NCBI GenBank assembly: GCA_965218975.1
Contig: OZ244717.1
Span: 896,001 to 960,000 of the forward strand
Direction: 5' to 3'
DNA: 64,000 nt
DNA from: Candidatus Oxydemutatoraceae bacterium
GTDB lineage: Bacteria; Pseudomonadota; Gammaproteobacteria; Poriferisulfidales; Oxydemutatoraceae
Shown here: piece by piece, positions 16,968 to 64,000 of the stretch
Position numbering within the stretch: the stretch's first letter is position 1
How the letters are laid out: every line of letters begins with the position of its first letter
Notes under the pieces: generated by a model
Told to the model about the DNA's origin: nothing
Seen by the model: the letters and a program-made list of their open reading frames with translations, nothing else
The model's database searches: none
Translations under genes and position numbers: made by a program

Positions 16968-17077
16968 CAGGCACTTTGCTGAAAATCCAGCAACAAACAC
17001 AAAACGGTTTCATAACCGGTCATTGAATGCTTCCGTATCGGCGAATAGCAGGTTTTCTGCATGAATCAATACAATCT

Positions 17078-19634: not shown

Positions 19635-19963
19635 TATGCCGGACCCAGTGTCGTGAAAAAAGTTAACCACCTAAAAATGATTATTGCCACAACAATCGCA
19701 TTAATGATTATGATGTTGCGATAGCGATGTTTTTCTTCAATTTTATCCGCGCCGGAAGAAAATATGGCCGACATCATCATGTCAAGTAATATCGCCATTA
19801 CAACCAATGGTATTAGCGCAGGCGCAATCAGTGTCGGTATAATTAATGGCCACTCTGTGACAGTACGCGTTTGCGGTTCCGGCGCCAGCAGTGCAAGCAT
19901 CATGCCAAGTAAAAGTAATGCACTGCGCAGAATGCCAAAGCGAGTTATATGTGCTAAAAACAT
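19634..19963 (-). CDS. Hypothetical membrane protein
   Basis: Three hydrophobic segments; divergent from rpe; coupled to the downstream ORF. Confidence 0.7.
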   Translation of the reverse strand: MFLAHITRFGILRSALLLLGMMLALLAPEPQTRTVTEWPLIIPTLIAPALIPLVVMAILLDMMMSAIFSSGADKIEEKHRYRNIIIINAIVVAIIIFRWLTFFTTLGPA

Positions 19964-20007
19964 GACGAATAAGAGTTTACCCTGTATTATTCCGCTTGAG
20001 AAAAGTT

Positions 20008-31031: not shown

Positions 31032-31066
31032 TTGACAACTGTTATCTGTTAACTATATAGTTAACA
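31032..31066 (+). promoter_or_regulatory. Candidate sigma70 promoter overlapped by a perfect 20-bp palindrome (operator)
   Basis: TTGACA 31032-31037, 18-bp spacer, TATAGT 31056-31061; palindrome tgttaactatatagttaaca at 31047-31066. Confidence 0.65.
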
Positions 31067-32234: not shown

Positions 32235-35200
32235 ATGCGGATGTTCGGTAACATTAGCAGTGTAGTCAAAGTTTTTAGCGTGGCGGCATTCATCGCTATA
32301 GCGCCTGCTTTGGAAGCGCAATTTACTCCTCAAGATTCTCCCGGTGATACGGACCCGACATTTTTATCGCAGATGGTAGGGACGCGAGACAATCAAGATT
32401 GCTCAGCGGAGGAAGGGATACAATGTCGTTACGGGATGGATGTACGCTTTGGCAATGTCCGGGTGGAAGCAGGGCTTTTTCGGTTTGAGATTCAGCTCAG
32501 AGCGCAGAGGGCAGCAGACGGCGAGCCTAATGGCACGCTTCCTGTCAGTGCGACAGCGCTAGGCAATGTTCTAAATTCCTCACAAATGTATATCCGCTAT
32601 AAGTTGATCCATAGCAGCGAGGCATCTGTTTGGGGAGAGAACGCCGCCGCTGTCAGCCCTACCAACAACCCTACAGGCGCATGCCGCGCAGCGCTCGGTG
32701 CGGACCTAGGCGCCACCCTAACGAACGATAATTCTCAGTTCCTGACAGCGTTTTATAGCTTCCGGGTTTATGGTAATGAGGAGTTTGAGGAGAACTTGAT
32801 GACGCTTGGAAACGCGTCCATATATTCAAGCTTGGGTCCGAATTCCCCCTTAGTGTCAGGGCTAGCGGGGTATTTTATATTGGATGACGAAGCCTATAAA
32901 ACAGTCATGAATGTCGGTTGTGCGATTTCACCCGAGGTGGTGGCAGCGGGTCGTCGGGCAGAGATGACGTTTCATTCCTTTGGCTTCAACGTTGCGTCTC
33001 AACTATGGGATATGAACAGATTCTCTAGGTATGCAGTGCGTGCAGTCAATAATCTGGAGTATGTTCCGCTCGATGGGGTTTCCGCTTATATTGAACATGC
33101 CCGCTTGGCGGATACCAACCGGCACGCGTTGATTCGATTTAACACCGATTTACCGGACGAAGATGTCGTCACAACGACTGCGTCTTATACGGTAGCACGT
33201 TTCTTTGACGGTTCCGCACCGGCGGTTTCATTTGCCGCTGAAAATGTTCTCAAACTGGACGCGAGGACCGTATGGGTAACATTTCCGGAGACGTTCGCAA
33301 CAGCTGTCAGCGACTCGTTTTTGGAAAATGTGTTGCTGCGGGCGACCTTCACCGGACAGGACAGCTACATCGCCGCGGTTTACGGGAATGAAGCGCTGTA
33401 CCGTGTCGGAGTTTTGTATGGAAACGAAGCCTCCGGCTCTCAATTTACTCCGCCAAGAATTGCTCAAGCGACTATTAGTGAGGATAACCGGACGGTTGAG
33501 CTTGTTTTTTCGGTGCCCGTGTCGAGCAATGCGCAAGGGGATGAGATACTGGTGCCGGAAGACTTTGAGGTTGTTTTTTACCCGGGCATTTCTGCGAGGT
33601 CAAGCAGCATTGTCGAAGTAACTCAAGTGGAGGAGGTTGATCCGAGCAGGTATAGATTGACACTAGATATCGAGGGTGCGGATCTTGGCGAAATCACCGG
33701 AGACGAATACTTGCTGATTAAAGGCGCTGAAAGGAGTGAAACAGAATTTTACATCAGCACTGCGACAATTTTTAATCGGGAGCGTGTGCACAGAGACTTA
33801 ACTGAAGTACAGGTGGATGTGGCTGCTCTAGGTGTGGGAATGGCGACAGGCGATTATGGTGTCGGCATGCGCGACTTGCCAGGCAATGCGCTGCTACAAA
33901 TGCGCCGGTCGAGTGTTGACATCAACGTGGCACCGGTATTCAGCGATGCGGAAAGTTTTGAGGTCAACGAAGGGCAGACGGTAGTGGGCACGGTGACGGC
34001 TGAGGATGCGAACATAGAAGACGAGGCAATGTATTTGATTACCGACGGTGCGGATCAAGCTCAGTTCACAATTGACCCGTCTTCGGGCGAGTTGAGATTC
34101 ACAACCGCACCGGACTTTGAGAATCCGGCGGATGAGGGTGCGAATAACGTTTATATGCTCATCGTGACGGCGACCGGCGGCACGGACGCTCGGGCATTGA
34201 CAACAACGCAAGCGATTACGGTGACGGTGCTGGATGTGTCGACGACGGTCACGATTACGGCGGCGGAGCCGACGGTAACGGAAGGCGAGCCGGCGGTATT
34301 CGTGTTTGAGCGGACCGACGCGACGGATGCATCGACATTGACGGTGAACATTACGGTAGACGATTCCGGCGGAGTGCTTGCGGATGCGGAGCCTGATACG
34401 ATTACTTTTGACGCCGATTCTGCAACAGCGGCGCTTAACCTTGCCACCATTGATGATGCGTTTGACGAAGACGACAGCACGGTGACGGTTACCGTTGTCG
34501 CCGGTATAGTTTATGCGGTCGGCACTGAGAATAGCGCCGAGGTGCGAGTGGTCGACAACGATGATGCACCGGAGTTGGTTTTGTCTCAGACCACCGTTGA
34601 AGAAGGGGCTGAGATTACTATCTCTATAGATAACAGGAGGAACCAGTCGGTATTAGCGGTCACGTTCGAGTTTGACGGCACGGCGATGCCTGAGAACGAC
34701 TATATAGTAACGACGCTCGGAGGTTCACCGCTGTTGTCACCGTATAATGTGACTATTGAGATTTCTGCGCGGAACCGAGTTGCTGTACTAAGAATAAGGA
34801 CGGTAGACGACCAAGTGGACGAGGCAGATGAGACGATTGAGATAACCGCGCGGCATGAGGGCGGCATAATCGGCGAGGAAACGATTATGGTCATCGACAA
34901 CGATGCGCCGCCGGAGTTGGATTTGTCGGTGAGCGCGGTAATGATTGATGAAGGCGAATCGGTCGATATTACGCTAGAGATCACGAATGAATCGGTATAT
35001 GCCGAGAATCAAACGATCGCGTTAGAGTTTACCGGCAATGCGACGACTACTGCCGACTATACGGTTGACGGCTTGCTGCTACAGCTGCCGTCGTATGAGT
35101 TGACTTTACCGGCGGGAGAATCTGCGGCAAGCGCAACGATCATGGCGCTGATAGACGCCATGACGGCTGAGGGAGATGAGACTATTATGATTACCGCTCG

Positions 35201-38200
35201 GCATGAAGGCGAAATGATCGGCGACAAGGCAACAATCATGATCATTGATAACACGGCGCCGGTATTCAGTGATCCGGTAAGTTTTGCGGTCAACGAAGGG
35301 CAGACGACAGTGGGCATGGTGACGGCTGCGGATGCGAACACGGAAGACGAGGTGACGTATTCGGTTACCGGCGGTGCGGATGAGACCTTGTTCGCCATTG
35401 ACGACCCGTCTTTGGGCGAGTTGAGTTTCGTCACTGCACCGGACTTTGAGAATCCGGTGGATGCGGGTGAAGACAACAACTACATGCTCATCGTGACGGC
35501 GACTGGCGGCACGGACGCTCGGGAATTGACGACGACAGAAGCGATTACAGTGATGGTGCTTGATGTGGATGAGTCGACGGTAACGATCACAGCGGACAAG
35601 GCGTCGGTGACGGAAGGCGAGCAGGCGATGTTCACGCTTGAGCGGACTGCGCCGACGGATGTGGAATTATTGGTGAGAATCACGGTAGGGGACCCCGGCG
35701 GAGTGCTTGCAGCAGCGGCGCCTGAAATGGTTACTTTTGACGCCGGTTCTACAACAGCGGCGCTCAGTCTTGCCACCATTGATGATATGATTGACGAAGC
35801 CGACAGCACACTGACGGTTACCGTTGTCGCCGGTATAGTTCATGAGGTCGGTATTGAGAATAGCGCTGAGGTGCGGGTGATTGACGTCAACGTGGCACCG
35901 GTATTCAGTGATGCGGTAAGTTTTGAGGTCAACGAAGAGCAGACGATAGTGGGCACGGTGACGGCTGCGGATGCGAACACGGAAGACGAGGTGACGTATT
36001 CGGTTACCGGCGGTGCGGATGAGACCTTGTTCGCCATTGACGACCCGTCTTCGGGCGAGTTGAGATTCACAACCGCACCGGACTATGAGAATCCGATGGA
36101 TGCGGATACGGATAACGTTTATACGCTCACCGTGACGGCGACCGGCGGCACGGACGCTCGGGCATTGACAACAACGCAAGCGATTACGGTGACGGTGCTG
36201 GATGTGCCGACTACAATTACAATTACAGCGGACGAGGCAGAGGTCACAGAAGGCGAACCGGCGATGTTTACACTCAGCCGGACAGACGCGACGGATGCGC
36301 CGGCATTGACAGTGAACATTACGGCAGTTGAGATCGGCGAAGTGCTTGCGGATGCGGCGCCTAGTACGGTGACTTTTGACGCCGGTTCTGCGACAGCGGA
36401 GCTCAGTCTTGCTACCGTCATTGATGAGATGATTGGCGACAGAACGGTGACGGTTACCGTGAACGCCGGTGTGGGTTATGCGGTCGGTAGTGAGAATAGC
36501 GCCGAGGTGCGGGTGATCGACATCAACGTGGCGCCGGTATTCAGCAGTTCGGAAAGTTTTGCGGTCAACGAAGGGCAGACGATAGTGGGCACGGTGACGG
36601 CTGCGGATGCAAACACGGAAGACGAGGTGACGTCGTATTCGGTTACCGGCGGTGCGGATGGTGCCTTGTTTACCTTCGCCGACCCATCTTTGGGCGAGTT
36701 GAGTTTCGTCACTGCACCGGACTATGAGAATCCGACGGATGCAGATACGGATAACGTTTATACGCTCACCGTGACGGCAATCGGCGGCACGGACGCTCGG
36801 GCGTTGACGGCGACGCAAGCGATTACGGTGACGGTGCTTGATGTGCCTATGACGATCACGATTACGGCAGACGATACAGAGGTCACGGAAGGCGAACCGG
36901 CGATGTTTACACTCAGCCGGACCGACGCGACGGATGCACCGGTATTGGCGGTAAACATTACGGCAGTTGAGGTCGGCGAAGTGCTTGCGACTGCAGCGCC
37001 TAGTACGGTTACTTTTGCTGCCGATTCTGCGACAACGATGCTCAGCCTTGCCACCGTCATTGATGATACGTTCGGCGTCAGAACGGTGACGGTTACCGTG
37101 AACGCCGGTGTGGGTTATGAGGTCGGTATTGAGAATAGTGCTGAGGTGCGAGTGGTTGACGTCAACGTGGCGCCGGTATTCAGCAGTTCGGAAAGTTTTG
37201 CGGTCAACGAGGGGCAGACGGTAGTCGGCACGGTGACGGCTGCGGATGCGAATCCGGGAGACGAGGTAACGTATTCGATTACCGGCGGTGCGGATGAGAC
37301 CTTGTTCGCCATTGACGACCCGTCTTCGGGCGAGTTGAGATTCACAACCGCACCGGACTTTGAGAGTCCGGCGGATGCGGATACGAACAACAACTACATG
37401 CTCATCGTGACGGCAATCGGCGGCACGGACGCTCGGGCGTTGACAACAACGCAAGAGATTGAGGTGACGGTGCTGGATGTGCCGACTACAATTACGATTA
37501 CGGCGGACGAGGCAGAGGTCACAGAAGGCGAACCGGCGATGTTTACACTCAGTCGGACCGACGCGACGGATGCGCCGGCATTGACAGTGAACATTACGGT
37601 AGATGCGACCGTCGGAGTGCTTGCGACTGCGGCGCCTAGTACGGTGACTTTCGACGCCGGTTCTGCGACAACGGAGTTTAGTCTTGCCACTGTCATTGAT
37701 GAAATGATTGGCGACAGAACGGTGACGGTTACCGTGAACGCCGGTGTGGGTTATGCGGTCGGGATTGAGAATAGCGCTGAGGTGCGGGTGATTGACATCA
37801 ATGTGGCGCCGGTATTCAGTGATGCGGTAAGTTTTGCGGTCAACGAAGGGCAGACGATAGTGGGCACGGTGACGGCTGCGGATGCAAACACGGAAGACGA
37901 GGTGACGTCGTATTCGGTTACCGGCGGTGCGGATGGTGCCTTGTTTACCTTCGCCGACCCATCTTTGGGCGAGTTGAGTTTCGTCACTGCACCGGACTAT
38001 GAGAATCCGACGGATGCAGATACGGATAACGTTTATACGCTCACCGTGACGGCAATCGGCGGCACGGACGCTCGGGCGTTGACGGCGACGCAAGCGATTA
38101 CGGTGACGGTGCTTGATGTGCCTATGACGGTCACGATTACGGCAGACGATACAGAGGTCACGGAAGGCGAGCTGGCGGTGTTCACGTTCAGCCGGACCGA

Positions 38201-41200: not shown

Positions 41201-44200
41201 TCAAACGATCACGTTAGAGTTTGACGGCGATGCGACGCCTGAGGAGGACTATGCGGTATTGGTTGAGAATTTACCGCTGTCGCCACCGTATGAGTTGATT
41301 TTGCCGGCGGGGGCATCTGCGACAGTCGCAACGATAATGGCGAAGGCAGCCGACATGACGGATGAGGGGGATGAGACAATTATGATTACCGCCCGGCATG
41401 GTGGCGACACGATCGGCGAAGAGACGATCACGATCATTGATAACGTGGCGCCGGTATTCATCAGTGCGGCAAGTTTCGAGGTCAACGAGGGGCAGACGCT
41501 AGTCGGCACGGTAGTGGCTGAGGATGCCAATAGCCTAGACGATGTTCTGTACGTGGTTCAATCTAATGACTCTAATGACTCGTCGCCGGATAGCGCTCTG
41601 TTTTCAATCCTCTCGCTCACAGGCGTACTGAGATTCGAGACGGCGCCGGATTTTGAGGCTCCGGCAGATGCGGATATGAACAACGAATACATAATTACTA
41701 TTTTGGCGTCCGATTTCAATGGGAGCCTAAGCAATCAAGGGTTAACGGCACGCCAAAGAGTTACCGTTATGGTGCTTGATGTGCCTACGACGATTACGAT
41801 TACGGCGGACAAAGCAGAGGTTACGGAAGGCGAGCCGGCGGTGTTTACATTCAGTCGGACCGACGCGACGGATGCGCCGGCATTGACAGTGAACATTACG
41901 ATAGATGCGACCGACGAAGTGCTTGCGGATGCGGCGCCTGGTATGGTGACTTTTGACGCCGGTTCTGCGAGAACGGTGCTTAGCCTTGCCACCGTCATTG
42001 ATGAGGCGTTTGGTGTCAGAACGGTGATGGTTACCGTGAACGACGGTGTGGGTTATGAGGTCGGTATTGAGAATAGCGCCGAGGTGCGGGTGATTGACGT
42101 CAACGTGGCACCGGTATTCAGCAGTGCGGAAAGTTTTGAGGTCAACGAAGGGGAGACGGTAGTCGGCACGGTGACGGCTGAGGATGCGAACATAGAAGAC
42201 GAAGTGACGTATTCGATTACCAACGGCGCGGATCAAGATCAGTTTACTATTAACTCGTCTTCGGGCGAGTTGAGTTTCGTCACCGCACCGGACTTTGAGA
42301 ATGCAGCGGATGCGGACGGAGACAATGCATACATGCTCACGGTGGCGGCAATCGGCGGCACGGACGCTCGGGCGTTGACGACGACGCAAGCGATTATGGT
42401 GACGGTGCTTGATGTGCCGACGACGATTACGATTACGGCAGACGAGCCGATGGTAACGGAAGGCGAGTCGGCGATGTTCACATTCAGCCGGACCGACGCG
42501 ACGGATGCGCCTGCATTGACGGTGAACATTACGGTAGATGATCCCGAGGGGGTGCTTGCGGCAGCGGCACCTGAAATGGTGACTTTTGCTGCCGATTCTG
42601 CGACAACGGCGCTCAACCTTGCCACCATTGATGATACGCTTGAAGAAGACGACAGCACGGTGACGGTTACCGTGAACGACGGTGTGGATTATGCGGTCGG
42701 TATTGAGAATAGTGCCGAGGTGCGGGTGAACGACAACGACGGGCCGTTCACGATCTCGTTCGTCCAGAGCGAATATACGTTCAATGAAAGGGACTCGGTA
42801 GTTGTCATGATCAGACTGAGCGGCGAAAGACCGCTGCGCGGCGCTGTAAGCGCTACTATCTCGACAATGGAAGGCAGCGCGCTCCATCCTGAGGATTATA
42901 CCCTGGTTAATTCTAGGTTTTCATTCGGCCCTAGCGATTCTATCCCTGCGCTGCGTTCTGAATCTCTTTCTCGTATCAATGACGCGATTTTCGAGACCGA
43001 AGAATTCTTTTCGGTGAGAATTAGATCTGTAATGGCATCGGATCCCGCCGATGAGGTGGTGATCGGTCAGGGCGAAGCGACGATTACCATCATTGATAAC
43101 GATTCGCCTCCTATCTGGAGTTTAGACATGTTGCCGAGTAGTGTCAGTGAAAGTAGGGACACCGCGGTGCCGATTGTGATGAAGCGGATGCGTGATTTAC
43201 TTGACAGAGGATATCCGCTGACGCTTGAGTTGGGGGGGACGGCGACGTTCGGCGAAGACTACGTTATCACGGATATGGATGACAATCCGTTCGCGTTACC
43301 GCTTACATTCCCTGCGCCGTATATTGCCGATGATGTGTTTGATCTTCGGACAGATAAAACAGTCGAATTCGGCTTAGTGATAACAGACGACGCGGTGTTT
43401 GAGGGAGCCGAGACGATTGAGCTGCGATTAACTACGACGGACCCTGACGTTACGATAGGCAGCGATACGACTCAGACGATCACGATCATTGACGACGATA
43501 CGACGCCGGTGTTGTCTCTGTCGGTGAGTGCGACCACCATTGAAGAGGGAGCATCGGTCGATATTACAGTGATGACGAACGAGTCGGTATATGCCGAAGA
43601 TCAAACGATCACGTTAGAGTTTGCCGGCGATGCGATGCCTGAGGACGACTATACGGTAATGGTCGACAGCTTGCCGCTGTCGTCGCCGTATGAGTTAACT
43701 TTGCCGGCGGGGTTGTCTTCGGTAACCGCAACGATCATGGCGACAGACGACCGAGCGGACGAAGCGAATGAGACGATCACACTAACCGCCCGGCATGAAG
43801 GCGACACAATCGGCGAGGAAACGATCACGATCATTGACGATGATGCGGCGCCGGAGTTGGATTTGTCGGTGAGCGAGACCACCATCGACGAAGGGGCATC
43901 GGGCGATATCGAAGTGGGAATCACGAACGAATCGGTATTTGCCGAAGATCAAACGATTACGTTAGAGTTTGCCGGCGAGGCGACGCCTGAGGACGACTAT
44001 ACGGTAATGGTCGGAGGTTCGTTGCTGTCGTCGCCGTATCAAGTGATTTTACCGGCGGGGTCGTCTTCGGTAAGCGCAATGATCATGGCGCTAATAGACG
44101 ACATGACGGCTGAGGGGAATGAGACGATTATGATTACCGCCCGGCATGAAGGTGAAATGATCGGCGAGGTAACGATCACGATCATTGATAACACGGCGCC

Positions 44201-47200
44201 GGTCTTCAGCGATGCGGTAAGTTTTGAGGTCGACGAAGGACAGACGACGGTCGGCGTTGTGACGGCTGAGGATGCGAACCCGCAAGACGAGGCAATGTAT
44301 TCGGTTACCGGCGGTGCGGATGATGCCCTGTTTGATATCGACTCGTCTTCGGGTGAATTGAGTTTCGTCACCGCGCCGGACTTTGAGAATGCGGTGGATG
44401 CGGATACGGATAACGTTTATATGCTCATCGTGACGGCGATCGGCGGCACGGACGCTCGAGCGTTGACGACGACGCAAGAGATTACGGTGACGGTGCTTGA
44501 TGTGCCGACGACGGTCACGATTACGGCGGCGGAGCCGACGGTAACGGAAGGTGAGCCGGTAATGTTCACGTTTGAGCGGACCGACGCGACGGATGCGCCG
44601 GCATTGACGGTGAACATTACGATAGATGCGACCGACGAAGTGCTTGCGGATGTGGCGCCTGGTATGGTGACTTTCGACGCCGGTTCTGCGAGAACGGTGC
44701 TTAGCCTTGCCACCGTCATTGATGAGGCGTTTGGCGTCAGAACGGTGATGGTTACCGTGAACGACGGTGTGGGTTATGAGGTCGGTATTGAGAATAGCGC
44801 CGAGGTGCGGGTGATTGACGTCAACGTGGCACCGGTATTCAGCAGTGCGGAAAGTTTTGAGGTCAACGAAGGGGAGACGGTAGTCGGCACGGTGACGGCT
44901 GAGGATGCGAACATAGAAGACGAAGTGACGTATTCGATTACCAACGGCGCGGATCAAGATCAGTTTACTATTGACTCGTCTTCGGGCGAGTTGAGTTTCG
45001 CCACCGCACCGGACTTTGAGAATGCAGCGGATGCGGACGGAGACAATGCATACATGCTCACGGTGGCGGTAATCGGCGGCACGGACGCTCGGGCGTTGAC
45101 GACGACGCAAGCGATTATGGTGACGGTGCTTGATGTGCCGACGACGATTACGATTACGGCAGACGAGCCGATGGTAACGGAAGGCGAGCCGGCGGTGTTC
45201 ACGTTCAGCCGGACCGACGCGACGGATGCGCCTGCATTGACGGTGAACATTACGGTAGACGATTCCGGCGGAGTGCTTGCGGATGCGGCGCCTGATACGA
45301 TTACTTTTGACGCCGATTCTGCGACAACGGTGCTCAACCTTGCCACCATTGATGATACGCTTGAAGAAGACGACAGCACGGTGACGGTTACCGTGAACGA
45401 CGGTGTGGATTATGCGGTCGGTATTGAGAATAGTGCCGAGGTGCGGGTGAACGACAACGACGGGCCGTTAACGATCTCGTTCGTCACGACCGAGTATATG
45501 GTCAATGAAAGCGATAGAGAGGTAAGGTTCGAACTCAGACTGAGCGACGAAAGACCGCTGCGCGGCAATATAAACGTTGGCTTAACGGCACGCGACGGCA
45601 GCGCGGTCCTTACTGAGGATTATTCCCCGAGAGGTAGTGTTACTATCTATACTCCTATATCAGTTCTGATGAGAACTGTGCAGTATTTCATTATCGATGA
45701 CGATGTCTTCGAAACCGAAGAATTCTTTTCGTTGAGGATTTCCGGTGTAACGACGTTTCATAGCGACGATGAGGTGGTGATCGGTCAGGGGCGCGTAGCG
45801 ACGGTTACCATCATTGATGACGATTTGCCTCCTATCTGGAGTTTGGACATGTTGCCGAGTAGTGTCAGTGAAAGTAGGGACACCGCGGTGCCGATTGTGA
45901 TGAGGCGGATGCGTGATTTACTTGACAGAGGATATCCGCTGACGCTTGAGTTGGGGGGGACGGCGACGTTCGGCGAAGACTACGTTATCACGGATATGGA
46001 TGACAATTCGTTCGCGTTACCGCTTACATTCCCTGCGCCGTATATTGCCGATGATGTGTTTGATCTTCGGACAGATAAAACAGTCGAATTCCGCTTAGTG
46101 ATAACAGACGACGCGGTGTTTGAGGGAGCCGAGACGATTGAGCTGCGATTAACTACGACGGACCCTGACGTTACGATAGGCAGCGATACGACTCAGACGA
46201 TTACGATCATCGACAACGATGCGGTGCCGGTGTTGTCTCTGACGGTCGGTGCAACCGCAATCAATGAAGGCGCATTGACCGATATCGAAGTGGGAATCAC
46301 GAACGAGTCGGTATATGCCGAAGATCAAACGATCACGTTAGAGTTTGCCGGCGATGCGATGCCTGAGGACGACTATACGGTAATGGTCGGAGATTCGCCG
46401 TTGTCATCGCCGTATGTGTTGACTTTGCCGGCGGGGTTGTCTTCGGTAAGCGCAACGATCATGGCGACAGACGACATGACGGCTGAGGGGAATGAGACGA
46501 TCACACTAACCGCCCGGCATGAAGGCGACACGATCGGCGAGGCAATGATTACGATCATTGACGATGATGCGGCGCCGGAGTTGGATTTGTCGGTGAGCGA
46601 GACCACCATTGACGAAGGAGTATCAGCCGATATTACGCTAGAAATCACGAACGAATCGGTATTTGCCGAGAATCAAACGATTACGTTAGAGTTTGACGGC
46701 ACGGCAACGGAGGATGACTATACGCTATCGGCTGAGAATTTACCGCTGTTGCCGCCGCATGAGTTGATTTTACCGGCGGGGTCGTCTTCGGTAAGCGCAA
46801 TGATCATGGCGCTAATAGACGACATGACGGCTGAGGGGAATGAGACGATTATGATTACCGCCCGGCATGAAGGCGAAATGATCGGCGAGGTAACGATCAC
46901 GATCATTGATAACACGGCGCCGGTCTTCAGCGATGCGGTAAGTTTTGAGGTCGACGAAGGACAGACGACGGTCGGCGTTGTGACGGCTGAGGATGCGAAC
47001 CCGCAAGACGAGGCAATGTATTCGATTACCGGTGGGGCGGATGATGCCCTGTTTGATATTGACTCGTCTTCGGGTGAGTTGAGTTTCGCCACCGCACCGG
47101 ACTTTGAGAATGCGGCGGATGCGGATACGGATAACGTTTATGTGCTCACGGTGACGGCAATCGGCGGCACGGACGCTCGAGCGTTGACGACGACGCAAGA

Positions 47201-50200: not shown

Positions 50201-53200
50201 TGAGGATGCGAACATGGGGGATGAGGTGACCTATTCGGTTACTGGCGGTGCGGATGGCACCCTGTTCACCATTGACCCGTCTTCGGGCGAGTTGAGTCTC
50301 GCCACTGCACCGGACTATGAGAATCCGGCGGATGCGGATACGGATAACGTTTATATGCTCACGGTGGCGGCAATCGGCGGCACGGACGCTCGAGCGTTGA
50401 CGACGACACAAGGGATTACGGTGACGGTGCTTGATGTGCCTACGACGATCACGATTACGGCGGACAAAGCAGAGGTTACGGAAGGCGAGCCGGTAATGTT
50501 TACATTCAGTCGGACCGACGCGACGGATGCGCTTGCATTGGCGGTGAACATTACGGTAGATGATCTCGACGGGGTGCTTGCGGCAGCGGCACCTGAAATG
50601 GTGACTTTTGCTGCCGGTTCTGCGACAGCGGAGCTCAGTCTTGCCACCGACGACGATACGCTTGAAGAAGACGACAGCGTAGTGACGGTTACCATCATAG
50701 ACAGTGCGGACTATAGGATCGGTATTGAGAACAGTGCTTCGGTGCGTGTTGTCGACGACGACGTCAACGTGGCGCCGGCATTCATCAGTGCAGCAAGTTT
50801 TGAGGTCAACGAAGGGCAGCCAGTAGTCGGTACGGTGACGGCTGCGGATGCGAACATAGAAGACGAGGTGATGTATTCGATTACCGGCGATGCGGATGAT
50901 GCCCTGTTTGATATCGACTCGTCTTCGGGCGAGTTGGGTTTCGCCACTGCACCGGACTTTGAGAATGCAGCGGATGCGGATACGGATAACGTTTATATGC
51001 TCATCGTGACGGCAACCGGCGGCACGGACGCTCGGGCGTTGACGACGACGCAAGCGATTACGGTGACGGTGCTTGATGTGCCTACGACGATTACGATTAC
51101 GGCGGCAGAGCCGATGGTAACGGAAGGCGAGCCGGCAGTGTTCGTGTTTGAGCGGACCGACTCGACGAATGTGTCGGAATTGAATGTGTTCTTTACGGTA
51201 GATGATCCCGGCGGAGTGCTTGTGCTTCCAAAGCCTTTTGCTCTTTCTTTTGGAGCTGCTGGAGCTGCTTCCGAGACAGCGATGCTCAGCCTTGCCACCA
51301 TTGATGATGCGCTTGAAGAAGACGACAGCACGGTAACGGTTACCGTTGGTGCCCATATGAATTATGAGGTCGGCATTGAGAATAGTGCCGAGGTGCGGGT
51401 TGTCGACAACGACGTCAACGTGGCACCGGTATTCAGCGATCCGGTAAGTTTTGAGGTCAACGAAGGGGAGACGGTAGTCGGCACGGTGACGGCTGAGGAT
51501 GCGAACCCGCAAGACGAGGTGAGGTATTCGGTTACCGGCGGTGCGGATGATGCCCTGTTTGATATCGACTCGTCTTCGGGCGAACTGAGCTTCACAACCG
51601 CACCGGACTATGAGAATCCGGCGGATGCGGATACGGATAACGTTTATATGCTCATCGTGACGGCGGCCGGCGGCACGGGTGCTCGGGCGTTGACGACGAC
51701 GCAAGAGATTACGGTGACGGTGCTTGATGTGCCGACTACAATTACGATTTTTGCTGACGAACCGACGGTAACGGAAGGCGAGCTGGCGGTGTTCACGTTG
51801 AATCGGACCGCGCCGACGGATACGGGATTATTGGTGGAGATTGAGGTAGTTGATTCCCCCGACGGAACGGTAGTCGGTAACCCCGGTGGAGCGCTTATGG
51901 TTTTGATACCTGATATGATTACTTTTAGGGCCGGTTCTACGACAGCGGTGCTCAGTCTTGCCACCATTGATGATATGATTGATGAAGCCGACAGCACGCT
52001 GACGGTTACCGTTGTTGAAGGGATGAGTTATGAGGTTGGTATCGAGAATAGCGCCGAGGTGCGGGTTGTCGACAACGATGACGTACCGGGTGCGCCGGCG
52101 GAATTAGCAGCCGCAGCGGGCGACACGCACGCAGTCCTAAGTTGGGAAGCGCCTGCCGACCCCGGCACTTCGCCGATTGAGCGTTACGAATATCGCGCGA
52201 GCAGTGACGCCGGAACGATTGGGGATCAGGAATGGAATGCCGCCGGCGATGCGACGGGCGAAGTCAGAACTCAAATCGTATCGAGCTTAAGCAACGACAC
52301 GGAATACACATTTGAAGTACGCGCGGTCAGCGCGGCGGGCAACGGTGCAGCCGCGCAAATCACGGCGACACCGAGTTCCGAGACGGCGGTATTCACTCTG
52401 ACGTTTGACCCGAGCGAATATACGCTCACTGAAAGTGACCAGAGGGTAACTCTCACGCTCAGACTGATCGGCGAAGAGCGTGCGCTGCAAGATGATGTAA
52501 CCGTTACTGTCTCGACACACGACGGCAGCGCGGTCACTCCTCAGGATTATGTGGCTATTGAGAATGCGACGGTTGTCTTTGAACCCGAAGAGGGCGTGAC
52601 CGAGTTAACGCAAACGGTGACGGTTCAGATTGTCAATGACATCGTTTTTGAGTTAGATGACGAGATCTTTTCGGTGATTATTAACGATGTAACGGCGGCG
52701 ACTTCCAGCGACACGGTCGTGATTGATCAAGGCGAAGCGACGGTTACCATCGTCGATGACGGCGGCCCACCGATTTGGGTATTGGACCGGTTGCCGAGTT
52801 CTGTCGGTGAAAGCACGGGCACCGTGTCGATTGAGATGAGGCGCGTGTCGATTGTTAATTCTGATACTAACCGCGGGTATTCGCTGACGCTTGAGCTGGG
52901 AGGGACGGCGACGTTCGGCGACGACTACGTCATCACGGATATAGACGGCAATCCGTTGGCGTCGCCGCCTACATTCGATATAGCGCAAAACCAAACAATG
53001 CTTGAAGCCCGCCTGATAATAACGGACGATAGGGTGTTTGAGGGCGAGGAGACGATTGAGATACGCTTGAGCACGACCGAGCCGAAGATCCTGATAGACG
53101 ACGCTACGACGCAGACGATCACGCTCATCGACAACGATGCAGCGCCGGAGTTAGATTTGTCGGTGAGTGCGGTAGCGATTGACGAAGGGGCATCGGTTGA

Positions 53201-56200
53201 TATTACGCTAGAGATCACGAACGAATCGGTATTTGCTGAGGATCAAACGATTACATTAGAGTTTACCGGCGATGCGATGCCTGAGGACGACTATACGGTA
53301 TCGGTCGACGGTTCGCCGCTGTTACCGCCGTATGAGTTGACTTTAACGGCGGGAGAATCTGCGCTAAACGCAACGATCATGGCGCTAATAGACGACATGA
53401 CGGCTGAGGGAGATGAGACGATTACACTAACCGCGCGGCATGGTGACGACACAATCGGCGAGGAAACGATCACAATCATTGATAACGAGGCGCCGGTATT
53501 CAGCAGTATGCCAAGTTTTGAGGTCAACGAAGGGGAGACGATAGTCGGCACGGTGACGGCTGAGGATGCGAACATAGAGGACGAGGTGATGTATTCGGTT
53601 ACCGGTGACGGTGCGGATGATGTCTTGTTTGATGTCGACTCGTCTTCGGGCGAACTGAGCTTCATAACCGCACCGGACTATGAGAATCCGGCGGATGCGG
53701 ATACGGATAACGTTTATATGCTCATCGTGACGGCGGCTGGCGGCACGGACGTTCGGGCGTTGACGACGACACAAGCGATTACGGTGACGGTGCTTGATGT
53801 GGCTACGACGATTACGATTACGGCAGACGAGCCGATGGTCACGGAAGGCGAGCCGGCGATGTTCACGTTCAGCCGGACCGACGCGACGGATGCGCTTGCA
53901 TTGACGGTGAACATTACGGTAGATGATTCCGGCGGAGTGCTTGCGGATGCGGCGCCTGATACGATTACTTTTGCTGCCGATTCTGCGACAACGGCGCTCA
54001 ACCTTGCCACCATTGATGATACGCTTGAAGAAGACGACAGCACGGTGACGGTTACCGTCATAGGCGGTATGGATTATGCGGTCGGTATTGAGAATAGTGC
54101 CGAGGTGCGGGTGAACGACAACGACGTTAACGTGGCGCCGGCATTCATCAGTGCAGCAAGTTTTGATGTCAACGAAGGAGAGACGGTAGTCGGCACGGTG
54201 ACGGCTGGGGATGCGAACCCGCAAGACGAGGTAACGTATTCGGTTACCGGCGGTGCGGATGATGCCCTGTTTGATATCGACTCGTCTTCGGGCGAACTGA
54301 GCTTCACAACTGCACCGGACTATGAGAATCCGGCAGATGCGGATACGGATAACGTTTATATGCTCATCGTGACGGCGGCCGGCGGCACGGACGCTCGGGC
54401 GTTGACGACGACGCAAGCGATTACGGTGACGGTGCTTGATGTGCCTACGACGATTACGATTACGGCGGCAGAGCCGATGGTAACGGAAGGCGAGCCGGCG
54501 GTGTTCGTGTTTGAGCGGACCGACGCGACGGATGCGCCGACATTGACAGTGAACATTACGATAGATGCGACCGACGAAGTGCTTGCGGATGCGGCGCCTG
54601 GTATGGTGACTTTTGACGCCGGTTCTACGACAACGGTACTTAGCCTTGCCACTGTCATTGATGAAATGTTTGGTGTCAGAACGGTGACGGTTACCGTGAA
54701 CGACGATGTGGATTATGCGGTCGGTATTGAGAATAGCGCCGAGGTGCGGGTGATTGACGTCAACGTGGCGCCGGTATTCAGTGAGCCGGTGAGTTTTGAC
54801 ATTGATGAGAGTCTGACAGTAGTCGGCACGGTGACGGCTGAGGATGCGAACATAGAAGACGAGGTGATGTATTCGGTTACCGGTGACGGTGCGGATGATG
54901 CTCTGTTTGATATCGACTCGTCTTCGGGCGAACTGAGCTTCACAACCGCACCGGACTATGAGAATCCGGCGGATGCGGATACGGATAACGTTTATATGCT
55001 CATCGTGACGGCGGTCGGCGGCACGGACGCTCGAGCGTTGACGACGACACAAGGGATTACGGTGACGGTGCTTGATGTGCCGACGACGGTCACGATTACG
55101 GTGGCAGAGCCGATGGTAACGGAAGGCGAGTCGGCGGTGTTTACATTCAGTCGGACCGACGTGACGGATGCGCCGGCATTGACAGTGAACATTACGATAG
55201 ATGCGACCGACGAAGTGCTTGCGGATGCGGCGCCTGGTATGGTGACTTTTGACGCCGGTTCTGCGAGAACGGTGCTTAGCCTTGCCACCGTCATTGATGA
55301 GGCGTTTGGCGTCAGGACGGTGATGGTTACCGTGAACGACGGTGTGGGTTATGAGGTCGGTATTGAGAATAGCGCCGAGGTGCGGGTGATTGACGTCAAC
55401 GTGGCACCGGTATTCAGCAGTGCGGAAAGTTTTGAGGTCGACGAAGGGGAGACGGTAGTCGGCACGGTGACGGCTGAGGATGCGAACATAGAAGACGAAG
55501 TGACGTATTCGATTACCAACGGCGCGGATCAAGATCAGTTTACTATTGACCCGTCTTCGGGCGAGTTGAGTTTCGTCACCGCACCGGACTTTGAGAATGC
55601 AGCGGATGCGGACGGAGACAATGCATACATGCTCACGGTGGCGGCAATCGGCGGCACGGACGCTCGGGCGTTGACGACGACGCAAGCGATTATGGTGACG
55701 GTGCTTGATGTGCCGACGACGATTACGATTACGGCAGACGAGCCGATGGTAACGGAAGGCGAGCCGGCGGTGTTCACGTTCAGCCGGACCGAGGCGACGG
55801 ATGCGCTGGCATTGACGGTGAACATTACGGTAGACGATTCCGGCGGAGTGCTTGCGGATGCGGCGCCTGATACGATTACTTTTGCTGCCGATTCTGCGAC
55901 AACGGCGCTCAGTCTTGCCACCGACGATGATACGCTTGAAGAAGACGACAGCACGGTGACGGTTACCGTGAACGACGGTGTGGATTATGCGGTCGGTATT
56001 GAGAACAGTGCCGAGGTGCGGGTGAACGACAACGACGGGCCGTTCACGATCTCGTTCGTCCAGAGCGAATATACGTTCAATGAAAGGGACTCGGCAGTTG
56101 TCATGATCAGACTGAGCGGCGAAAGACCGCGGCGCGGCAATGTAACGGTTACGGTTGATGCACACGACGGCAGCGCGGTTTTTATTGAGGATTATGGGTT

Positions 56201-59200
56201 GCGTAGTAGCGGTCTTATCTTTTTTCCTACCGTAATGCTGAGATCTGAGAGGTTTATTACTATTGATAACGCGGTTGTCGAGACCGAAGAATTCTTTTCG
56301 GTGAGAATTAGATCTGTAATGGCATCGGATCCCGCCGATGAGGTGGTGATCGGTCAGGGCGAAGCGACGATTACCATCATTGATAACGATTCGCCTCCTA
56401 TCTGGAGTTTAGACATGTTGCCGAGTAGTGTCAGTGAAAGTAGAGACACCGCGGTGCCGATTGTGATGAAGCGGATGCGTGATTTACTTGACAGAGGATA
56501 TCCGCTGACGCTTGAGTTGGGGGGGACGGCGACGTTCGGCGAAGACTACGTTATCACGGATATGGATGACAATCCGTTCGCGTTACCGCTTACATTCCCT
56601 GCGCCGTATATTGCCGATGATGTGTTTGATCTTCGGACAGATAAAACAGTCGAATTCCGCTTAGTGATAACAGACGACGCGGTGTTTGAGGGAGCCGAGA
56701 CGATTGAGCTGCGATTAACTACGACGGACCCTGACGTTACGATAGGCAGCGATACGACTCAGACGATCACGATCATCGACAACGATGCGGTGCCGGTATT
56801 GTCTCTAACGGTCGGTGCGACCACCATTGAAGAGGGAGCATCGGTCGATATTACAGTGATGACGAACGAGTCGGTATATGCCGAAGATCAAACGATCACG
56901 TTAGAGTTTGCCGGCGATGCGATGCCTGAGGACGACTATACGGTAATGGTCGACAGCTTGCCGCTGTCGTCGCCGTATGAGTTGACTTTGCCGGCGGGGT
57001 TGTCTTCGATAACCGCAACGATCATGGCGACAGACGACCGAGCGGACGAAGCGAATGAGACGATCACACTAACCGCCCGGCATGAAGGCGACACAATCGG
57101 CGAGGAAACGATCACGATCATTGACGATGATGCGGCGCCGGAGTTGGATTTGTCGGTGAGCGAGACCACCATCGACGAAGGGGCATCGGGCGATATCGAA
57201 GTGGGAATCACGAACGAATCGGTATTTGCCGAAGATCAAACGATTACGTTAGAGTTTGCCGGCGAGGCGACGCCTGAGGGCGACTATACGGTAATGGTCG
57301 GAGGTTCGTTGCTGTCGTCGCCGTATCAAGTGATTTTACCGGCGGGGTCGTCTTCGGTAAGCGCAATGATCATGGCGCTAATAGACGACATGACGGCTGA
57401 GGGGAATGAGACGATTATGATTACCGCCCGGCATGAAGGCGACATGATCGGCGAGGAAACGATCACGATCATTGATAACGTAGCGCCGGCATTCAGCGAT
57501 GCGGTAAGTTTTGCGGTCAACGAAGGACAGACGACGGTCGGCGTTGTGACGGCTGAGGATGCGAACCCGCAAGACGAGGCAATGTATTCGATTACCGGTG
57601 GGGCGGATGATGCCCTGTTTGATATTGACTCGTCTTCGGGTGAGTTGAGTTTCGCCACTGCACCGGACTATGAGAATCCGGCGGATGCGGATACGGATAA
57701 CGTTTATGTGCTCACGGTGACGGCAATCGGCGGCACGGACGCTCGAGCGTTGACGACGACGCAAGAGATTACGGTAACGGTGCTTGATGTGCCTACGACG
57801 GTCACGATTACGGCAGACAAGGCAGAGGTCACGGAAGGCGAGTCGGCGGTGTTTACATTCAGTCGGACCGACGCGACGGATGCGCCGGCATTGACGGTGA
57901 ACATTACGGTAGATGATCCTGCCGGAGCGCTTGCGACTGCGCTGCCTGGTATGGTGACTTTTGACGCCGGTTCTGCGAGAACGGTGCTTAGCCTTGCCAC
58001 CGTCATTGATGAGGCGTTTGGCGTCAGGACGGTGATGGTTACCGTGAACGATGGTATGGGTTATGAGGTCGGTATTGAGAATAGCGCCGAGGTGCGGGTG
58101 ATTGACGTCAACGTGGCACCGGTATTCAGCGATGCGGAAAGTTTTGAGGTCAACGAAGGGCAGACGGCAATCGGCACGGTGACGGCTGCGGATGCGAACA
58201 TAGAAGACGAGGTGATGTATTCGGTTACCGGCGGGGCGGATGATGCTCTGTTTGCAATTGACTCGTCTTCGGGCGAATTGAGTTTCGCCACCGCACCGGA
58301 CTATGAGAATCCGGCGGATGCGGATGAAGACAATAACTACATGCTCATCGTGACGGCGGCCGGCGGCACGGACGCTCGGGCGTTGACGACGACGCAAGCG
58401 ATTACGGTGACGGTGCTTGATGTGCCGACGACGATCACGATTACGGCAGAAGACCCGACGGTCACGGAAGGCGAGCCAGCGGTGTTCACGTTCAGCCGGA
58501 CCGACGCGACGGATGCGCTTGCATTGACGGTGAACATTACGGTAGACGATTCCGGCGGAGTGCTTGCGGATGCGGCGCCTGATACGATTACTTTTGCTGC
58601 CGATTCTGCGACAACGGCGCTCAGTCTTGCCACCGACGACGATACGCTTGAAGAAGACGACAGCACGGTGACGGTTACCGTCATAGGCGGTATGGATTAT
58701 GCGGTCGGTATTGAGAATAGTGCCGAGGTGCGGGTGAACGACAACGACGTTAACGTGGCGCCGGCATTCATCAGTGCAGCAAGTTTTGAGGTCAACGAAG
58801 GGGAGACGGTAGTCGGCACGGTGACGGCTGAGGATGCGAACCGGCAAGACGAGGTAACGTATTCGGTTACCGGCGGTGCGGATGATGCCTTGTTTGATAT
58901 CGACTCGTCTTCGGGCGAACTGATCTTCACAACTGCACCGGACTATGAGAATCCGGCAGATGTGGATACGGATAACGTTTATATGCTCATCGTGACGGCG
59001 GCCGGCGGCACAGACGCTCGGGCATTGACGACGACGCAAGAGATTACGGTGACGGTGCTTGATGTGCCTACGACAATTACGATTACGGCGGACAAAGCAG
59101 AGGTTACGGAAGGCGAGTCGGTGGTGTTTACATTCAGTCGGACCGACGCGACGGATGTGCCAAATTTGTTTGTGAACATTACGGTAGTTGCAACCGACGA

Positions 59201-62200
59201 AGTGCTTGCGGATGCGGCGCCTGGTATGGTGACTTTTGACGCCGGTTCTACGACAACGGTACTTAGCCTTGCCACTGTCATTGATGAAATGATTGGCGAC
59301 AGAACGGTGACGGTTACCGTGAACGACGGTGTGGATTATGCGGTCGGTATTGAGAATAGTGCTGAGGTGCGGGTGGTTGACGTCAACGTGGCGCCGGTAT
59401 TCAGCAGTATGCCAAGTTTTGAGGTCAACGAAGGGGAGACGGTAGTCGGCACGGTGACGGCTGAGGATGCGAACCCGCAAGACGAGGCAATGTATTCGAT
59501 TACCGGTGGGGCGGATGAGACCTTGTTCACCATTGACGACCCGTCTTCGGGTGAATTGAGTTTCGTCACCGCGCCGGACTTTGAGAATGCGGCGGATGCG
59601 GATGCGGATAACGTTTATATGCTCATCGTGACGGCAATCGGCGGCACGGACGCTCGAGCGTTGACGACGACGCAAGAGATTACGGTGACGGTGCTTGATG
59701 TGGCTACGACGATCACGATTACGGCGGACAAAGCAGAGGTTACGGAAGGCGAGCTGGCGGTGTTTACATTCAGTCGGACCGACGCGACGGATGCGCTGGC
59801 ATTGACGGTGAACATTACGGTAGATGATCCTGCCGGAGCGCTTGCGACTGCGCTGCCTGGTATGGTGACTTTTGACGCCGGTTCTGCGCGAACGGTGCTT
59901 AGCCTTGCCACCGTCATTGATGAGGCGTTTGGCGTCAGGACGGTGATGGTTACCGTGAACGACGGTATGGGTTATGAGGTCGGTATTGAGAATAGCGCCG
60001 AGGTGCGGGTGATTGACGTCAACGTGGCACCGGTATTCAGCAGTGCGGAAAGTTTTGAGGTCGACGAAGGGGAGACGGTAGTCGGCACGGTGACGGCTGC
60101 GGATGCGAACATAGAAGACGAGGTGATGTATTCGGTTACCAACGGCGCGGATCAAGATCAGTTTACTATTGACCCGTCTTCGGGCGAATTGAGTTTCGCC
60201 ACCGCACCGGACTTTGAGAATGCGGCGGATGCAGATACGGATAACGTTTATATGCTCATCGTGACGGCGGCCGGCGGCACGGACGCTCGGGCGTTGACGA
60301 CGACGCAAGAGATTGCGGTGACGGTGCTTGATGTGGCTACGACGATTACGATTACGGCAGAAGACCCGACGGTCACGGAAGGCGAGCCGGCGGTGTTCAC
60401 GTTCACCCGGACCGACGCGACGGATGCGCTGGCATTGACGGTGAACATTACGGTAGACGATTCCGGCGGAGTGCTTGCGGATGCGGCGCCTGATACGATT
60501 ACTTTTGACGCCGATTCTGCGACAACGGTGCTCAACCTTGCCACCATTGATGATACGCTTGAAGAAGACGACAGCACGGTGACGGTTACCGTGAACGACG
60601 GTGTGGATTATGCGGTCGGTATTGAGAATAGTGCCGAGGTGCGGGTGAACGACAACGACGGGCCGTTAACGATCTCGTTCGTCACGACCGAGTATATGGT
60701 CAATGAAAGCGATAGAGAGGTAAGGTTCGAACTCAGACTGAGCGACGAAAGACCGCTGCGCGGCAATATAAACGTTGACTTAACGGCAAGCGACGGCAGC
60801 GCGGTCCTTCATGAGGATTATTCCCCGAGAGTTAGTGTTACTATCTATACTCCTATATCAGTTCTGATGAGAACTGTGCAGTATTTCATTATCGATGACG
60901 ATGTCTTCGAAACCGAAGAATTCTTTTCGTTGAGGATTTCCGGTGTAACGACGTTTCATAGCGACGATGAGGTGGTGATCGGTCAGGGGCGCGTAGCGAC
61001 GGTTACCATCATTGATGACGATTTGCCTCCTATCTGGAGTTTGGACATGTTGCCGAGTAGTGTCAGTGAAAGTAGGGACACCGCGGTGCCGATTGTGATG
61101 AGGCGGATGCGTGATTTACTTGACAGAGGATATCCGCTGACGCTTGAGTTGGGGGGGACGGCGACGTTCGGCGAAGACTACGTTATCACGGATATGGATG
61201 ACAATTCGTTCGCGTTACCGCTTACATTCCCTGCGCCGTATATTGCCGATGATGTGTTTGATCTTCGGACAGATAAAACAGTCGAATTCCGCTTAGTGAT
61301 AACAGACGACGCGGTGTTTGAGGGAGCCGAGACGATTGAGCTGCGATTAACTACGACGGACCCTGACGTTACGATAGGCAGCGATACGACTCAGACGATT
61401 ACGATCATCGACAACGATGCGGTGCCGGTGTTGTCTCTGACGGTCGGTGCAACCGCAATCAATGAAGGCGCATTGACCGATATCGAAGTGGGAATCACGA
61501 ACGAGTCGGTATATGCCGAAGATCAAACGATCACGTTAGAGTTTGCCGGCGATGCGATGCCTGAGGACGACTATACGGTAATGGTCGGAGATTCGCCGTT
61601 GTCATCGCCGTATGTGTTGACTTTGCCGGCGGGGTTGTCTTCGGTAACCGCAACGATCATGGCGACAGACGACATGACGGCTGAGGGGAATGAGACGATC
61701 ACACTAACCGCCCGGCATGAAGGCGACACAATCGGCGAGGAAACGATTACGATCATTGACGATGATGCGGCGCCGGAGTTGGATTTGTCGGTGAGCGAGA
61801 CCACCATTGACGAAGGCGCATTGACCGATATTGAAGTGGGAATCACGAACGAGTCGGTATATGCCGAAGATCAAACGATCACATTAGAGTTTGCCGGTGA
61901 GGCGACGCCTGAGGACGACTATACAGTAATGGTCGGAGGTTCGTTGCTGTCGTCGCCGTATCAAGTGATTTTACCGGCGGGGTCGTCTTCGGTAAGCGCA
62001 ATGATCATGGCGCTAATAGACGACATGATGGCTGAGGGGAATGAGACGATTATGATTACCGCCCGGCATGAAGGCGAAATGATCGGCGAGGTAACGATCA
62101 CGATCATTGATAACACGGCGCCGGTCTTCAGCGATGCGGTAAGTTTTGAGGTCGACGAAGGACAGACGACGGTCGGCGTTGTGACGGCTGAGGATGCGAA

Positions 62201-64000: not shown

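Follow-up and report, generated by a model that had tools for sequence, protein, structure and literature searches.

In Gram-negative bacteria, the textbook route for giant adhesins with Ca2+-type repeats is export by a type I secretion system (T1SS), after which the N-terminus holds them at the cell. Here we describe a gene whose product resembles these adhesins in its stalk and differs from them at its N-terminus. It starts at position 32235 of the window, by which we mean the whole stretch of 64,000 nucleotides analysed (contig OZ244717.1, positions 896,001 to 960,000 of the forward strand), and runs as an open reading frame (ORF) past the 3' end of the window. Its product, referred to below as the giant protein, begins with a signal-peptide-like N-terminus and a new N-terminal head, followed by an array of 91 domains. 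The giant protein points to a second solution for such adhesins, in which entry would be by the Sec pathway, the protein would probably be held by a C-terminal sorting tail, and the N-terminal module would lie at the far end of a fibre of about 0.4 µm.

Like the giant protein, the giant adhesins LapA, SiiE, BapA and MpIBP act at the cell surface, have sizes in the megadalton (MDa) range and consist of an acidic rod of Ca2+-type Ig-, cadherin- or Calx-beta-like domains that ends in a unique module (PMC12153261). The giant protein, unlike these T1SS adhesins, has a Sec-like N-terminus, no HemolysinCabind/RTX repeat or other T1SS feature was found with Pfam in the 10,588 residues seen, and none of the 28 upstream ORFs scanned is a T1SS gene; furthermore, its probable anchor is C-terminal, so that the polarity would be reversed. 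In BapP of Pseudoalteromonas tunicata, likewise an adhesin from a marine gammaproteobacterium, a predicted Sec/SPI signal and a unique N-terminal module are combined with beta-sandwich repeats of the Calx-beta/Big_9 type. BapP contains 12 repeats and an N-terminal propeller and adjoins T1SS genes (PMC12153261), whereas the giant protein has 91 domains behind a head of another kind, and its paralogues end in a membrane-anchor tail. Giant cadherin-type adhesins are already known from host-associated marine gammaproteobacteria, since Endozoicomonas genomes contain 92 genes longer than 15 kb in which cadherin-related domains are enriched; the Endozoicomonas clusters also carry HemolysinCabind and VCBS domains, a T1SS-type signature that is not present in the giant protein (bioRxiv 10.1101/2025.03.06.641946). 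Outside the bacteria, the arm protein MAFp4 of the sponge Aggregation Factor also forms a long extracellular Calx-beta array (29 predicted domains) that functions in Ca2+-dependent adhesion, and sponge proteins related to it combine Calx-beta with Fn3 domains (PMC11670116). MAFp4 is a glycoprotein of eukaryotes and has a wreath domain, and the resemblance is architectural only.

A C-terminal sorting tail is described for VesB of Vibrio cholerae and its relatives, the substrates of the GlyGly-CTERM/rhombosortase pathway. Surface localisation of VesB needs its GlyGly-CTERM, rhombosortase and the T2SS (type II secretion system), and the cleaved protein is joined to a glycerophosphoethanolamine-containing moiety (PMC6219818). 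The GlyGly-CTERM tail and rhombosortase suffice for membrane association, and crossing of the outer membrane needs a second signal (PMC13393428). A comparable combination, of a signal-peptide-like N-terminus with a tripartite tail, is seen in three relatives of the giant protein, P0012, P0013 and P0001 (relatives are referred to by such numbers throughout). To our knowledge the pathway is otherwise known for ordinary-sized enzymes, and in the literature searched no paper was found that combines the terms "GlyGly-CTERM" and "cadherin".

The giant gene, the parts of its product and the antisense ORFs that it overlaps are located as follows.

32235..63998, + strand: giant ORF, ATG start, 10,588 codons, open at the 3' end of the window.
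32235..32321, + strand: signal-peptide-like N-terminus, residues 1–29, read from the sequence.
32322..33953, + strand: head, residues 30–573; the N-terminal half contains all four Cys residues and the C-terminal half is beta-rich.
33954..63998, + strand: repeat array of 91 domains, found with hidden Markov models (HMMs) built from the protein's own copies.
42729..44168, + strand: cassette 1, XCBB (a canonical Calx-beta domain, a type C and two type B domains); domain X scores 52.1 bits on Pfam Calx-beta, cut-off 27.
45450..46889, + strand: cassette 2, XCBB, found with Pfam and own-copy HMMs.
52092..52361, + strand: single fibronectin type III (fn3) domain, residues 6620–6709, 35.8 bits, cut-off 25.
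52386..53465, + strand: cassette 3, XCB, the most divergent copy, immediately after the fn3 domain.
56025..57458, + strand: cassette 4, XCBB, found with own-copy HMMs.
60648..62090, + strand: cassette 5, XCBB, found with own-copy HMMs.
35667-38732, 46812-49766, 53427-56165 and 57378-60308, - strand: antisense ORFs of 912–1,021 residues inside the giant gene.

The original prediction, made from the sequence of the window, described a hidden giant ORF running from ATG 32235 past the window end and absent from the ORF track. Our own translation of the frame confirmed this and contained no stop codon in all 10,588 codons. The nearest in-frame stop ahead of the gene is at 32217, and the ATG at 32235 is the first start codon thereafter. 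The longest of the other ORFs overlapping this region has 1,021 residues, which places the giant frame far beyond chance. A listing of closed ORFs of at least 300 residues between 32000 and 64000 returned seven antisense ORFs and not the giant frame. The gene therefore looked hidden because the default ORF list contains closed ORFs only; where open-ended frames are dropped from such lists the gene becomes invisible and spurious antisense ORFs, here of up to 1,021 residues, are shown in its place. Five of the seven were scanned with Pfam and gave no credible family, the lone Ribosomal_L17 line having no passing stretch. These are shadow ORFs, which could be mis-called by an annotator.

The part of the giant protein that is seen has a mass of about 1,110 kDa, which is a lower bound. 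Thr (13.6%), Ala (11.7%), Val (11.4%), Asp (10.4%) and Glu (7.9%) together make up 55% of its residues. There are 31 Lys residues, 26 of them within the repeats, and only four Cys residues (positions 56, 64, 150 and 229), all of which are in the head. The repeats contain 1,869 Asp and Glu residues versus 267 Lys and Arg residues. The earlier description of the repeats as rich in Asp, Glu, Thr, Val and Ala, poor in Lys and free of Cys is thus accurate.

The array of beta-sandwich domains comprises 33 cadherin domains, 57 domains of Calx-beta type and one fn3 domain. With c for cadherin, A, B and C for divergent Calx-beta-type domains, X for canonical Calx-beta and F for fn3, the domain order is cABB, (cA)x5, (cAB)x3, cA, cA, XCBB, cA, cA, XCBB, (cA)x7, F, XCB, (cA)x4, XCBB, (cA)x5, XCBB, (cA)x3, with the last unit cut by the window end. 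A type A domain directly follows every cadherin (33 cA units), so that the building block of the stalk is a cA didomain, and XCB(B) forms a second, rarer cassette. An HMM grown from the first cadherin of the protein recovered exactly 33 copies, where about 33 had been counted by hand, and the one fn3 domain that had been predicted was also recovered. An iterated HMM seeded with type A drifted and took in all 33 cadherins as well (85 hits), and the two types were separated by overlap with the cadherin hits. Pfam Cadherin (PF00028) passed in all six pieces of the protein that were scanned, with 35–220 bits against a cut-off of 28.8 and 29 passing stretches, and a profile of the 33 copies matched 27 solved cadherins at E≤1e-3, including CELSR1, protocadherin-15 and cadherin-23. 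The consensus of the 33 cA units contains an invariant Glu near the start, an invariant Asp and an invariant Asn in the middle, and an invariant Asp-x-Glu. A linker of the D-x-N-x-A-P-x-F type, with 24 matches, joins type A to the next cadherin and not cadherin to cadherin. We infer from the domain type and the acidic motifs that the stalk would bind Ca2+ and be stiffened by it.

Codon usage in the array differs from that of its surroundings. The GC content at third codon positions (GC3) is 0.62 in the repeat array (33954-63998) compared with about 0.45–0.53 for ten housekeeping genes and 0.52 for the protein's own head, and relative to the rest of the window (264-32189) the array uses ACG for 64% versus 31% of Thr and GAG for 63% versus 34% of Glu residues. 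GC-biased gene conversion among the repeats and a foreign origin of the modules are both possible explanations of this bias.

The 57 Calx-beta-type domains fall into four clusters at about 35% identity, corresponding to types A (33 copies), B (14), C (5) and X (5). Only type X is recognised by the Pfam Calx-beta model (PF03160), which gives four passing stretches in the long pieces, and a profile of X matched the Ca2+-binding domain of NCX1 at E 1e-13. The other 52 are not recognised by this model: representatives of type A (one), type C (one) and type B (two) gave no hit at E≤1, and none of the 14 copies of type B gave a hit at E≤10. Profile searches of the PDB with the divergent types returned nothing relevant. 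A direct sequence link to canonical Calx-beta was rejected, as hhalign comparison with X gave E values of 0.11 for A, 0.09 for B and 7e-4 for C, no better than the control comparison of A with cadherin (0.0019). Since this link is weak, the assignment of A, B and C to Calx-beta rests on the predicted fold and on the links among the three types. An AlphaFold2 model of one type A domain, with a mean per-residue confidence (pLDDT) of 88.7, had 25 matches in the PDB at E≤1e-3, and all 25 are Calx-beta domains (NCX1, CALX and integrin beta4; TM-scores 0.56–0.72), although 4 of the 30 rows in the alignment used for modelling were canonical X copies. The commonest subtype is thus a Calx-beta domain by its predicted fold. 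By profile comparison A aligns with B (E 4e-6, 87% probability) and B with C (E 1.3e-6, 91%), compared with E 0.39 for a control of B against cadherin. In a joint alignment all four types keep a V-x-E-G start and a DD..E..E end, and a G-x-A...DY motif is kept in B, C and X and lost in A. Types B and C appear linked to A through these profile comparisons and shared motifs only. The estimate of 55–60 Calx-beta-like domains in four subtypes was therefore right in number and at the level of fold or superfamily, and not at the level of the Pfam family.

The repetitive nature of the array raises the question of whether the assembly could have over-expanded it, as the original prediction itself had cautioned, or whether expression of the array has been lost. 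The longest exact DNA repeat in the gene is 815 bp, 13 repeat pairs exceed 190 bp, one 20-mer occurs 19 times, and protein segments of about 400 residues recur at 100% identity; moreover, the giant protein itself was not returned by the head searches among proteins of 5,500–17,500 residues or of all lengths. On the other hand, an over-expanded assembly would yield identical copies, and the copies here have diverged. The median dS between copies is 0.29–0.53, and the median ratio of nonsynonymous to synonymous divergence (dN/dS, pairwise Nei-Gojobori) is 0.41 for cadherin, 0.65 for A, 0.47 for B, 0.50 for C and 0.87 for X; for cadherin, A and B, dN is lower than dS in 96–100% of usable pairs. 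An upper limit of 815 bp on exact repeats likewise shows the copies to be distinct. The domain order is irregular and not that of a pure tandem array, and no stop or frameshift interrupts the 31.7 kb. The unbroken frame, the diverged copies with dN/dS of 0.4–0.9 and the irregular order argue for a real, apparently intact gene and not an assembly duplication, and we regard an artefact or a dead gene as very unlikely.

In the N-terminus of the giant protein, positions 2 and 12 are basic, and a hydrophobic core (12-residue hydropathy maximum of 2.32 at residue 11) is followed by an Ala-x-Ala-type site before Gln 30, a layout that looks like that of a Sec signal peptide. The head was predicted to span about 560 residues, and 573 residues precede the first cadherin. 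No Pfam family at E≤1 and no NCBIfam family was found in the head, and it had no match among proteins of 5,500–17,500 or of 1,004–2,865 residues. An all-length HMMER scan of 1.84 billion representative proteins gave 11 hits at E≤1e-3, and judged from these searches the head is a new and rare protein family. The best homologue, P0001 (1,563 residues), is named at NCBI as a protein from a metagenome-assembled genome of Candidatus Oxydemutatoraceae, a gammaproteobacterial family. It aligns with the head end to end, the match reaching from the signal-like stretch as far as the linker ahead of the first cadherin, with 31% identity (E 2e-64), so that the signal-like N-terminus of the giant protein is matched by one in its homologue. 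An AlphaFold2 model of the head built from 12 sequences was poor (mean pLDDT 51), and a Foldseek search with it gave only generic tandem Ig/FN3 chains with TM-scores of at most 0.20, which is uninformative. A profile search of the PDB gave a best E of 0.087, and the nearest Atlas entries (score 0.87; Big_5, SWM_repeat) are leads only. A species of the genus of P0001 is listed as one of the symbionts that dominate in a Stylissa sponge (PMC11685487). The earlier suggestion of a sponge symbiont thus receives indirect support only, through the name of P0001 and its genus.

The stalk has relatives of its own. A search with the repeat region of residues 3300–4300 among proteins of 5,500–17,500 residues returned 94 giants, the best two being P0012 (5,899 residues, 81% identity in the repeats) and P0013 (7,842 residues, 50% identity). 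Both are made of the same cA, XCB and F modules, as identified with own-copy HMMs. In genome contigs of species representatives, the 20-mer with 19 occurrences in the giant gene had 23 single matches, all in unrelated genomes, and no multi-copy locus. P0012, P0013 and the window ORFs at 31320-32189 and 29174-29812 are each recorded on one contig of 2,081,000 bp, and for this reason P0012 and P0013 are most likely paralogues of the giant protein in the same genome, apparently on the same contig. Together the three giants account for at least 24,329 residues and at least 73 kb, about 3.5% of the 2.08-Mb contig. In the precomputed Pfam list of P0013, PF13855, PF00560 and PF12799, which we take to be leucine-rich-repeat families, stand ahead of 12 cA units.

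Both paralogues open with a signal-like N-terminus, and their C-terminal 600 residues are 97.8% identical, a sign that the tail cassette may evolve in concert. Within this C-terminal region a choice-of-anchor-U domain is recognised (choice_anch_U, 59.9 bits against a cut-off of 32), and the very end consists of a Gly run followed by a hydrophobic (transmembrane) helix and a basic cluster. The tail of P0001, a protein of another organism, has the same elements, with an E value of 9e-9 to that of P0012. Among 105 proteins compared only P0012, P0013 and P0001 have such a tail, and in all three it is combined with a signal-like N-terminus. As a relative by the head (P0001) and relatives by the stalk (P0012 and P0013) share the tail, the same export logic is indicated by two independent kinds of relative. 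Elsewhere among the more distant giant stalk relatives (P0062, P0076 and P0084-P0104), PF11924, PF00353, SLH, CHU_C and a T9SS-type tail (T9SS, type IX secretion system) are found; in the T9SS-type tail FlgD_ig scores 39 bits and Por_Secre_tail 25.3 bits, the latter below its cut-off of 27.

Taken together, these features favour, with a probability that we would put slightly above even, a Sec-exported and C-terminally tethered Ca2+ fibre of more than 1.1 MDa, of the GlyGly-CTERM/rhombosortase type, with its head at the distal tip. The giant protein would cross the inner membrane via Sec, and its C-terminus would bear the cassette of P0012, P0013 and P0001, i.e. choice-of-anchor-U, Gly run, transmembrane helix and basic cluster. 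The steps from the tail onward are drawn by analogy: the tail would be processed as in GlyGly-CTERM proteins, with cleavage by a rhombosortase-type intramembrane protease and attachment of a lipid, and translocation across the outer membrane would follow, possibly by a T2SS. The fibre would then be tethered by its C-terminus, with a Ca2+-stiffened stalk and the N-terminal head presented at the tip as a binding module. Domains of this kind usually measure 4–5 nm in length, and at this spacing the part of the stalk that is seen would be roughly 0.35–0.45 µm long. The Sec-dependent route that had been suggested for the protein is thereby partly supported, by the signal-like N-terminus aligned with that of P0001, by the RTX-free sequence and by relatives that combine a signal with a sorting-type tail.

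Two features immediately upstream bear on the possible function of the head.

31032..31061, + strand: promoter-like site in front of the upstream ORF, a match to the consensus only (11 of 12 positions).
31320..32189, + strand: upstream ORF of 289 residues; its N-terminus is signal-peptide-like, its C-terminal stretch is dockerin-like, and it contains a DxDGDG motif.

No terminator-like site was found on the + strand between the promoter-like site and the giant ORF, and the upstream ORF is probably co-transcribed with the giant gene as an operon. Against Pfam it gave weak FG-GAP (E 0.35) and Dockerin (E 0.75) matches, and its nearest Atlas clusters are hypothetical proteins of about 240 residues (score 0.94–0.95), one of them with Dockerin_1 in 19% of its members. 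Residues 116–279 match residues 6–148 of P0002 (E 8e-11), a metagenome protein in which this part is followed by a homologue of the head. As the domain of the upstream ORF and the head occur in one protein, and no terminator-like site separates the two genes, the secreted dockerin-like protein is a candidate partner of the head. The upstream ORF and the giant ORF are in the same frame, and readthrough from one into the other was rejected, as there are three stops between them and the giant ORF has a signal-like start of its own.

Several observations weigh against the tethered fibre. The C-terminus of the giant protein lies beyond the window, and its tail is extrapolated from two paralogues and one homologue. 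In the relatives themselves, unlike in recognised GlyGly-CTERM substrates, the tail falls below the cut-off of the family model, P0012 reaching 9.2 bits (E 2.2) on TIGR03501 where 15.5 are required. The GlyGly-CTERM proteins named in literature abstracts are enzymes (proteases and a DNase) or of unassigned function, and not MDa fibres. No rhombosortase, rhomboid or T2SS gene occurs among the 28 upstream ORFs scanned, and we know of no precedent for a T2SS that transports a folded rod exceeding 1 MDa. The three giants are not simple copies of each other, as a phmmer comparison of the head with P0012 and P0013 gave nothing at E≤10. The stalk is evidently portable between export systems, to judge from the domains that accompany it in its relatives, and the repeats do not dictate the route. 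Lastly, the junction in P0002 lacks a signal peptide and the protein ends abnormally, so that P0002 may be a frameshifted call and the fusion mere adjacency.

A T1SS adhesin of the RTX/LapA/SiiE/MpIBP type is one alternative, as proteobacteria by default export their giant acidic repeat adhesins in this way. The N-terminus would then remain uncleaved, the protein would exit C-terminus first through an ATP-binding cassette transporter, a membrane fusion protein and TolC, and the head would act as the retention plug. Some of the giant stalk relatives (P0076, P0091, P0092 and P0097) do carry PF00353, presumably HemolysinCabind, and the window stops short of the C-terminus of the giant protein and of the genes downstream. 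The case of BapP, in which a predicted Sec signal coexists with neighbouring T1SS genes and the route is left open by the authors (PMC12153261), shows that a signal of this kind can be found next to such genes, and it too weakens the argument for the tethered fibre. However, the RTX repeats and T1SS genes are missing as described above, the signal-like N-terminus is conserved in P0001, and P0001, P0012 and P0013 end in a membrane-anchor-type tail with PF00353 not listed for any of them. The four Cys residues of the head would also fit oxidative folding in the periplasm better than a start in the cytoplasm, and on balance we consider the T1SS route unlikely. A signal-like N-terminus is also compatible with a Sec-dependent passenger of a type V secretion system (T5SS) with a classical autotransporter barrel at the C-terminus, and the giant Calx-beta relatives P0084, P0085 and P0089 carry PF11924, which we take to be an inverse-autotransporter barrel. 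Neither a TPS nor an IAT beta-barrel domain was found in the head with Pfam at E≤1, a single helix with a basic tail, and not a barrel, forms the C-terminus of both paralogues and of the head homologue, and the 200-residue C-termini of P0014, P0063 and P0070, barrel-like by eye, gave no Pfam hit; the T5SS passenger thus appears improbable.

The protein could also be exported by Sec and then released, either as a component of a matrix or biofilm or by shedding from its anchor, to form Ca2+-dependent homophilic networks between cells. VesB is released by the T2SS if its GlyGly-CTERM is not intact (PMC6219818), VesC is freed by autoproteolysis in its linker (PMC13393428), and the cadherin-like proteins CabC and CabD mediate Ca2+-dependent homophilic and heterophilic interactions (PMC12153261). 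The fact that the paralogues and P0001 keep the full anchor-type tail speaks against release, and we give it only a small chance.

Returning to the C-terminally tethered fibre, it would, if true, extend known rhombosortase-type and possibly T2SS cargo by two orders of magnitude in size, and it would define a new family of N-terminal heads with 11 detectable relatives among 1.84 billion proteins. It would also provide a concrete candidate for the attachment of a small-genome, probably host-associated gammaproteobacterium to its surroundings. The head family and the obligate didomain of a cadherin with a divergent Calx domain are new, as is the presence of three such giant genes that together occupy at least 73 kb of the 2.08-Mb contig, and so is the combination of a Sec-like signal with a likely GlyGly-CTERM-like anchor on proteins of such size. 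A more far-reaching proposal, which as a whole we consider rather doubtful, is that GlyGly-CTERM-like sorting has been repurposed to mount three lipid-tethered MDa fibres, that the new head at the tip of the giant protein perhaps bears the dockerin-like protein, and that the stalk imitates or plugs into the Calx-beta-rich adhesion apparatus of an animal host, for instance a sponge. In this proposal the giant protein would be the longest of the three and could well exceed 17,500 residues, as no protein of 5,500–17,500 residues with its head was found in the collection searched.

Among the 28 upstream ORFs are ruvCAB, tolQ/tolA/tolB/ybgF, a gamma-type queE, queC, trpEGDC, bioA, COQ7 and the gene for ADP-heptose epimerase, a gene set that indicates a Gram-negative chromosome of gammaproteobacterial type. 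Just before the epimerase gene, the ORF at 29174-29812 (+ strand, 212 residues) gave faint matches to ABC1 (E 0.1) and to the heptose(II) kinase RfaY (E 0.13) and may encode a kinase of the lipopolysaccharide core. Between ilvA and rpe there is a transposase gene of the IS1634 family (17175-18878, - strand, 338 bits) within a GC-rich segment (16001-20000), with a GC3 of 0.71 compared with about 0.49 in its neighbours and a local GC content of up to 0.57; it is probably a recent insertion. A tRNA-Lys gene (anticodon TTT, 10738-10813, - strand), located between a gene for a YeeE/YedE-type transporter and rplM, is the sole RNA gene found in the window.

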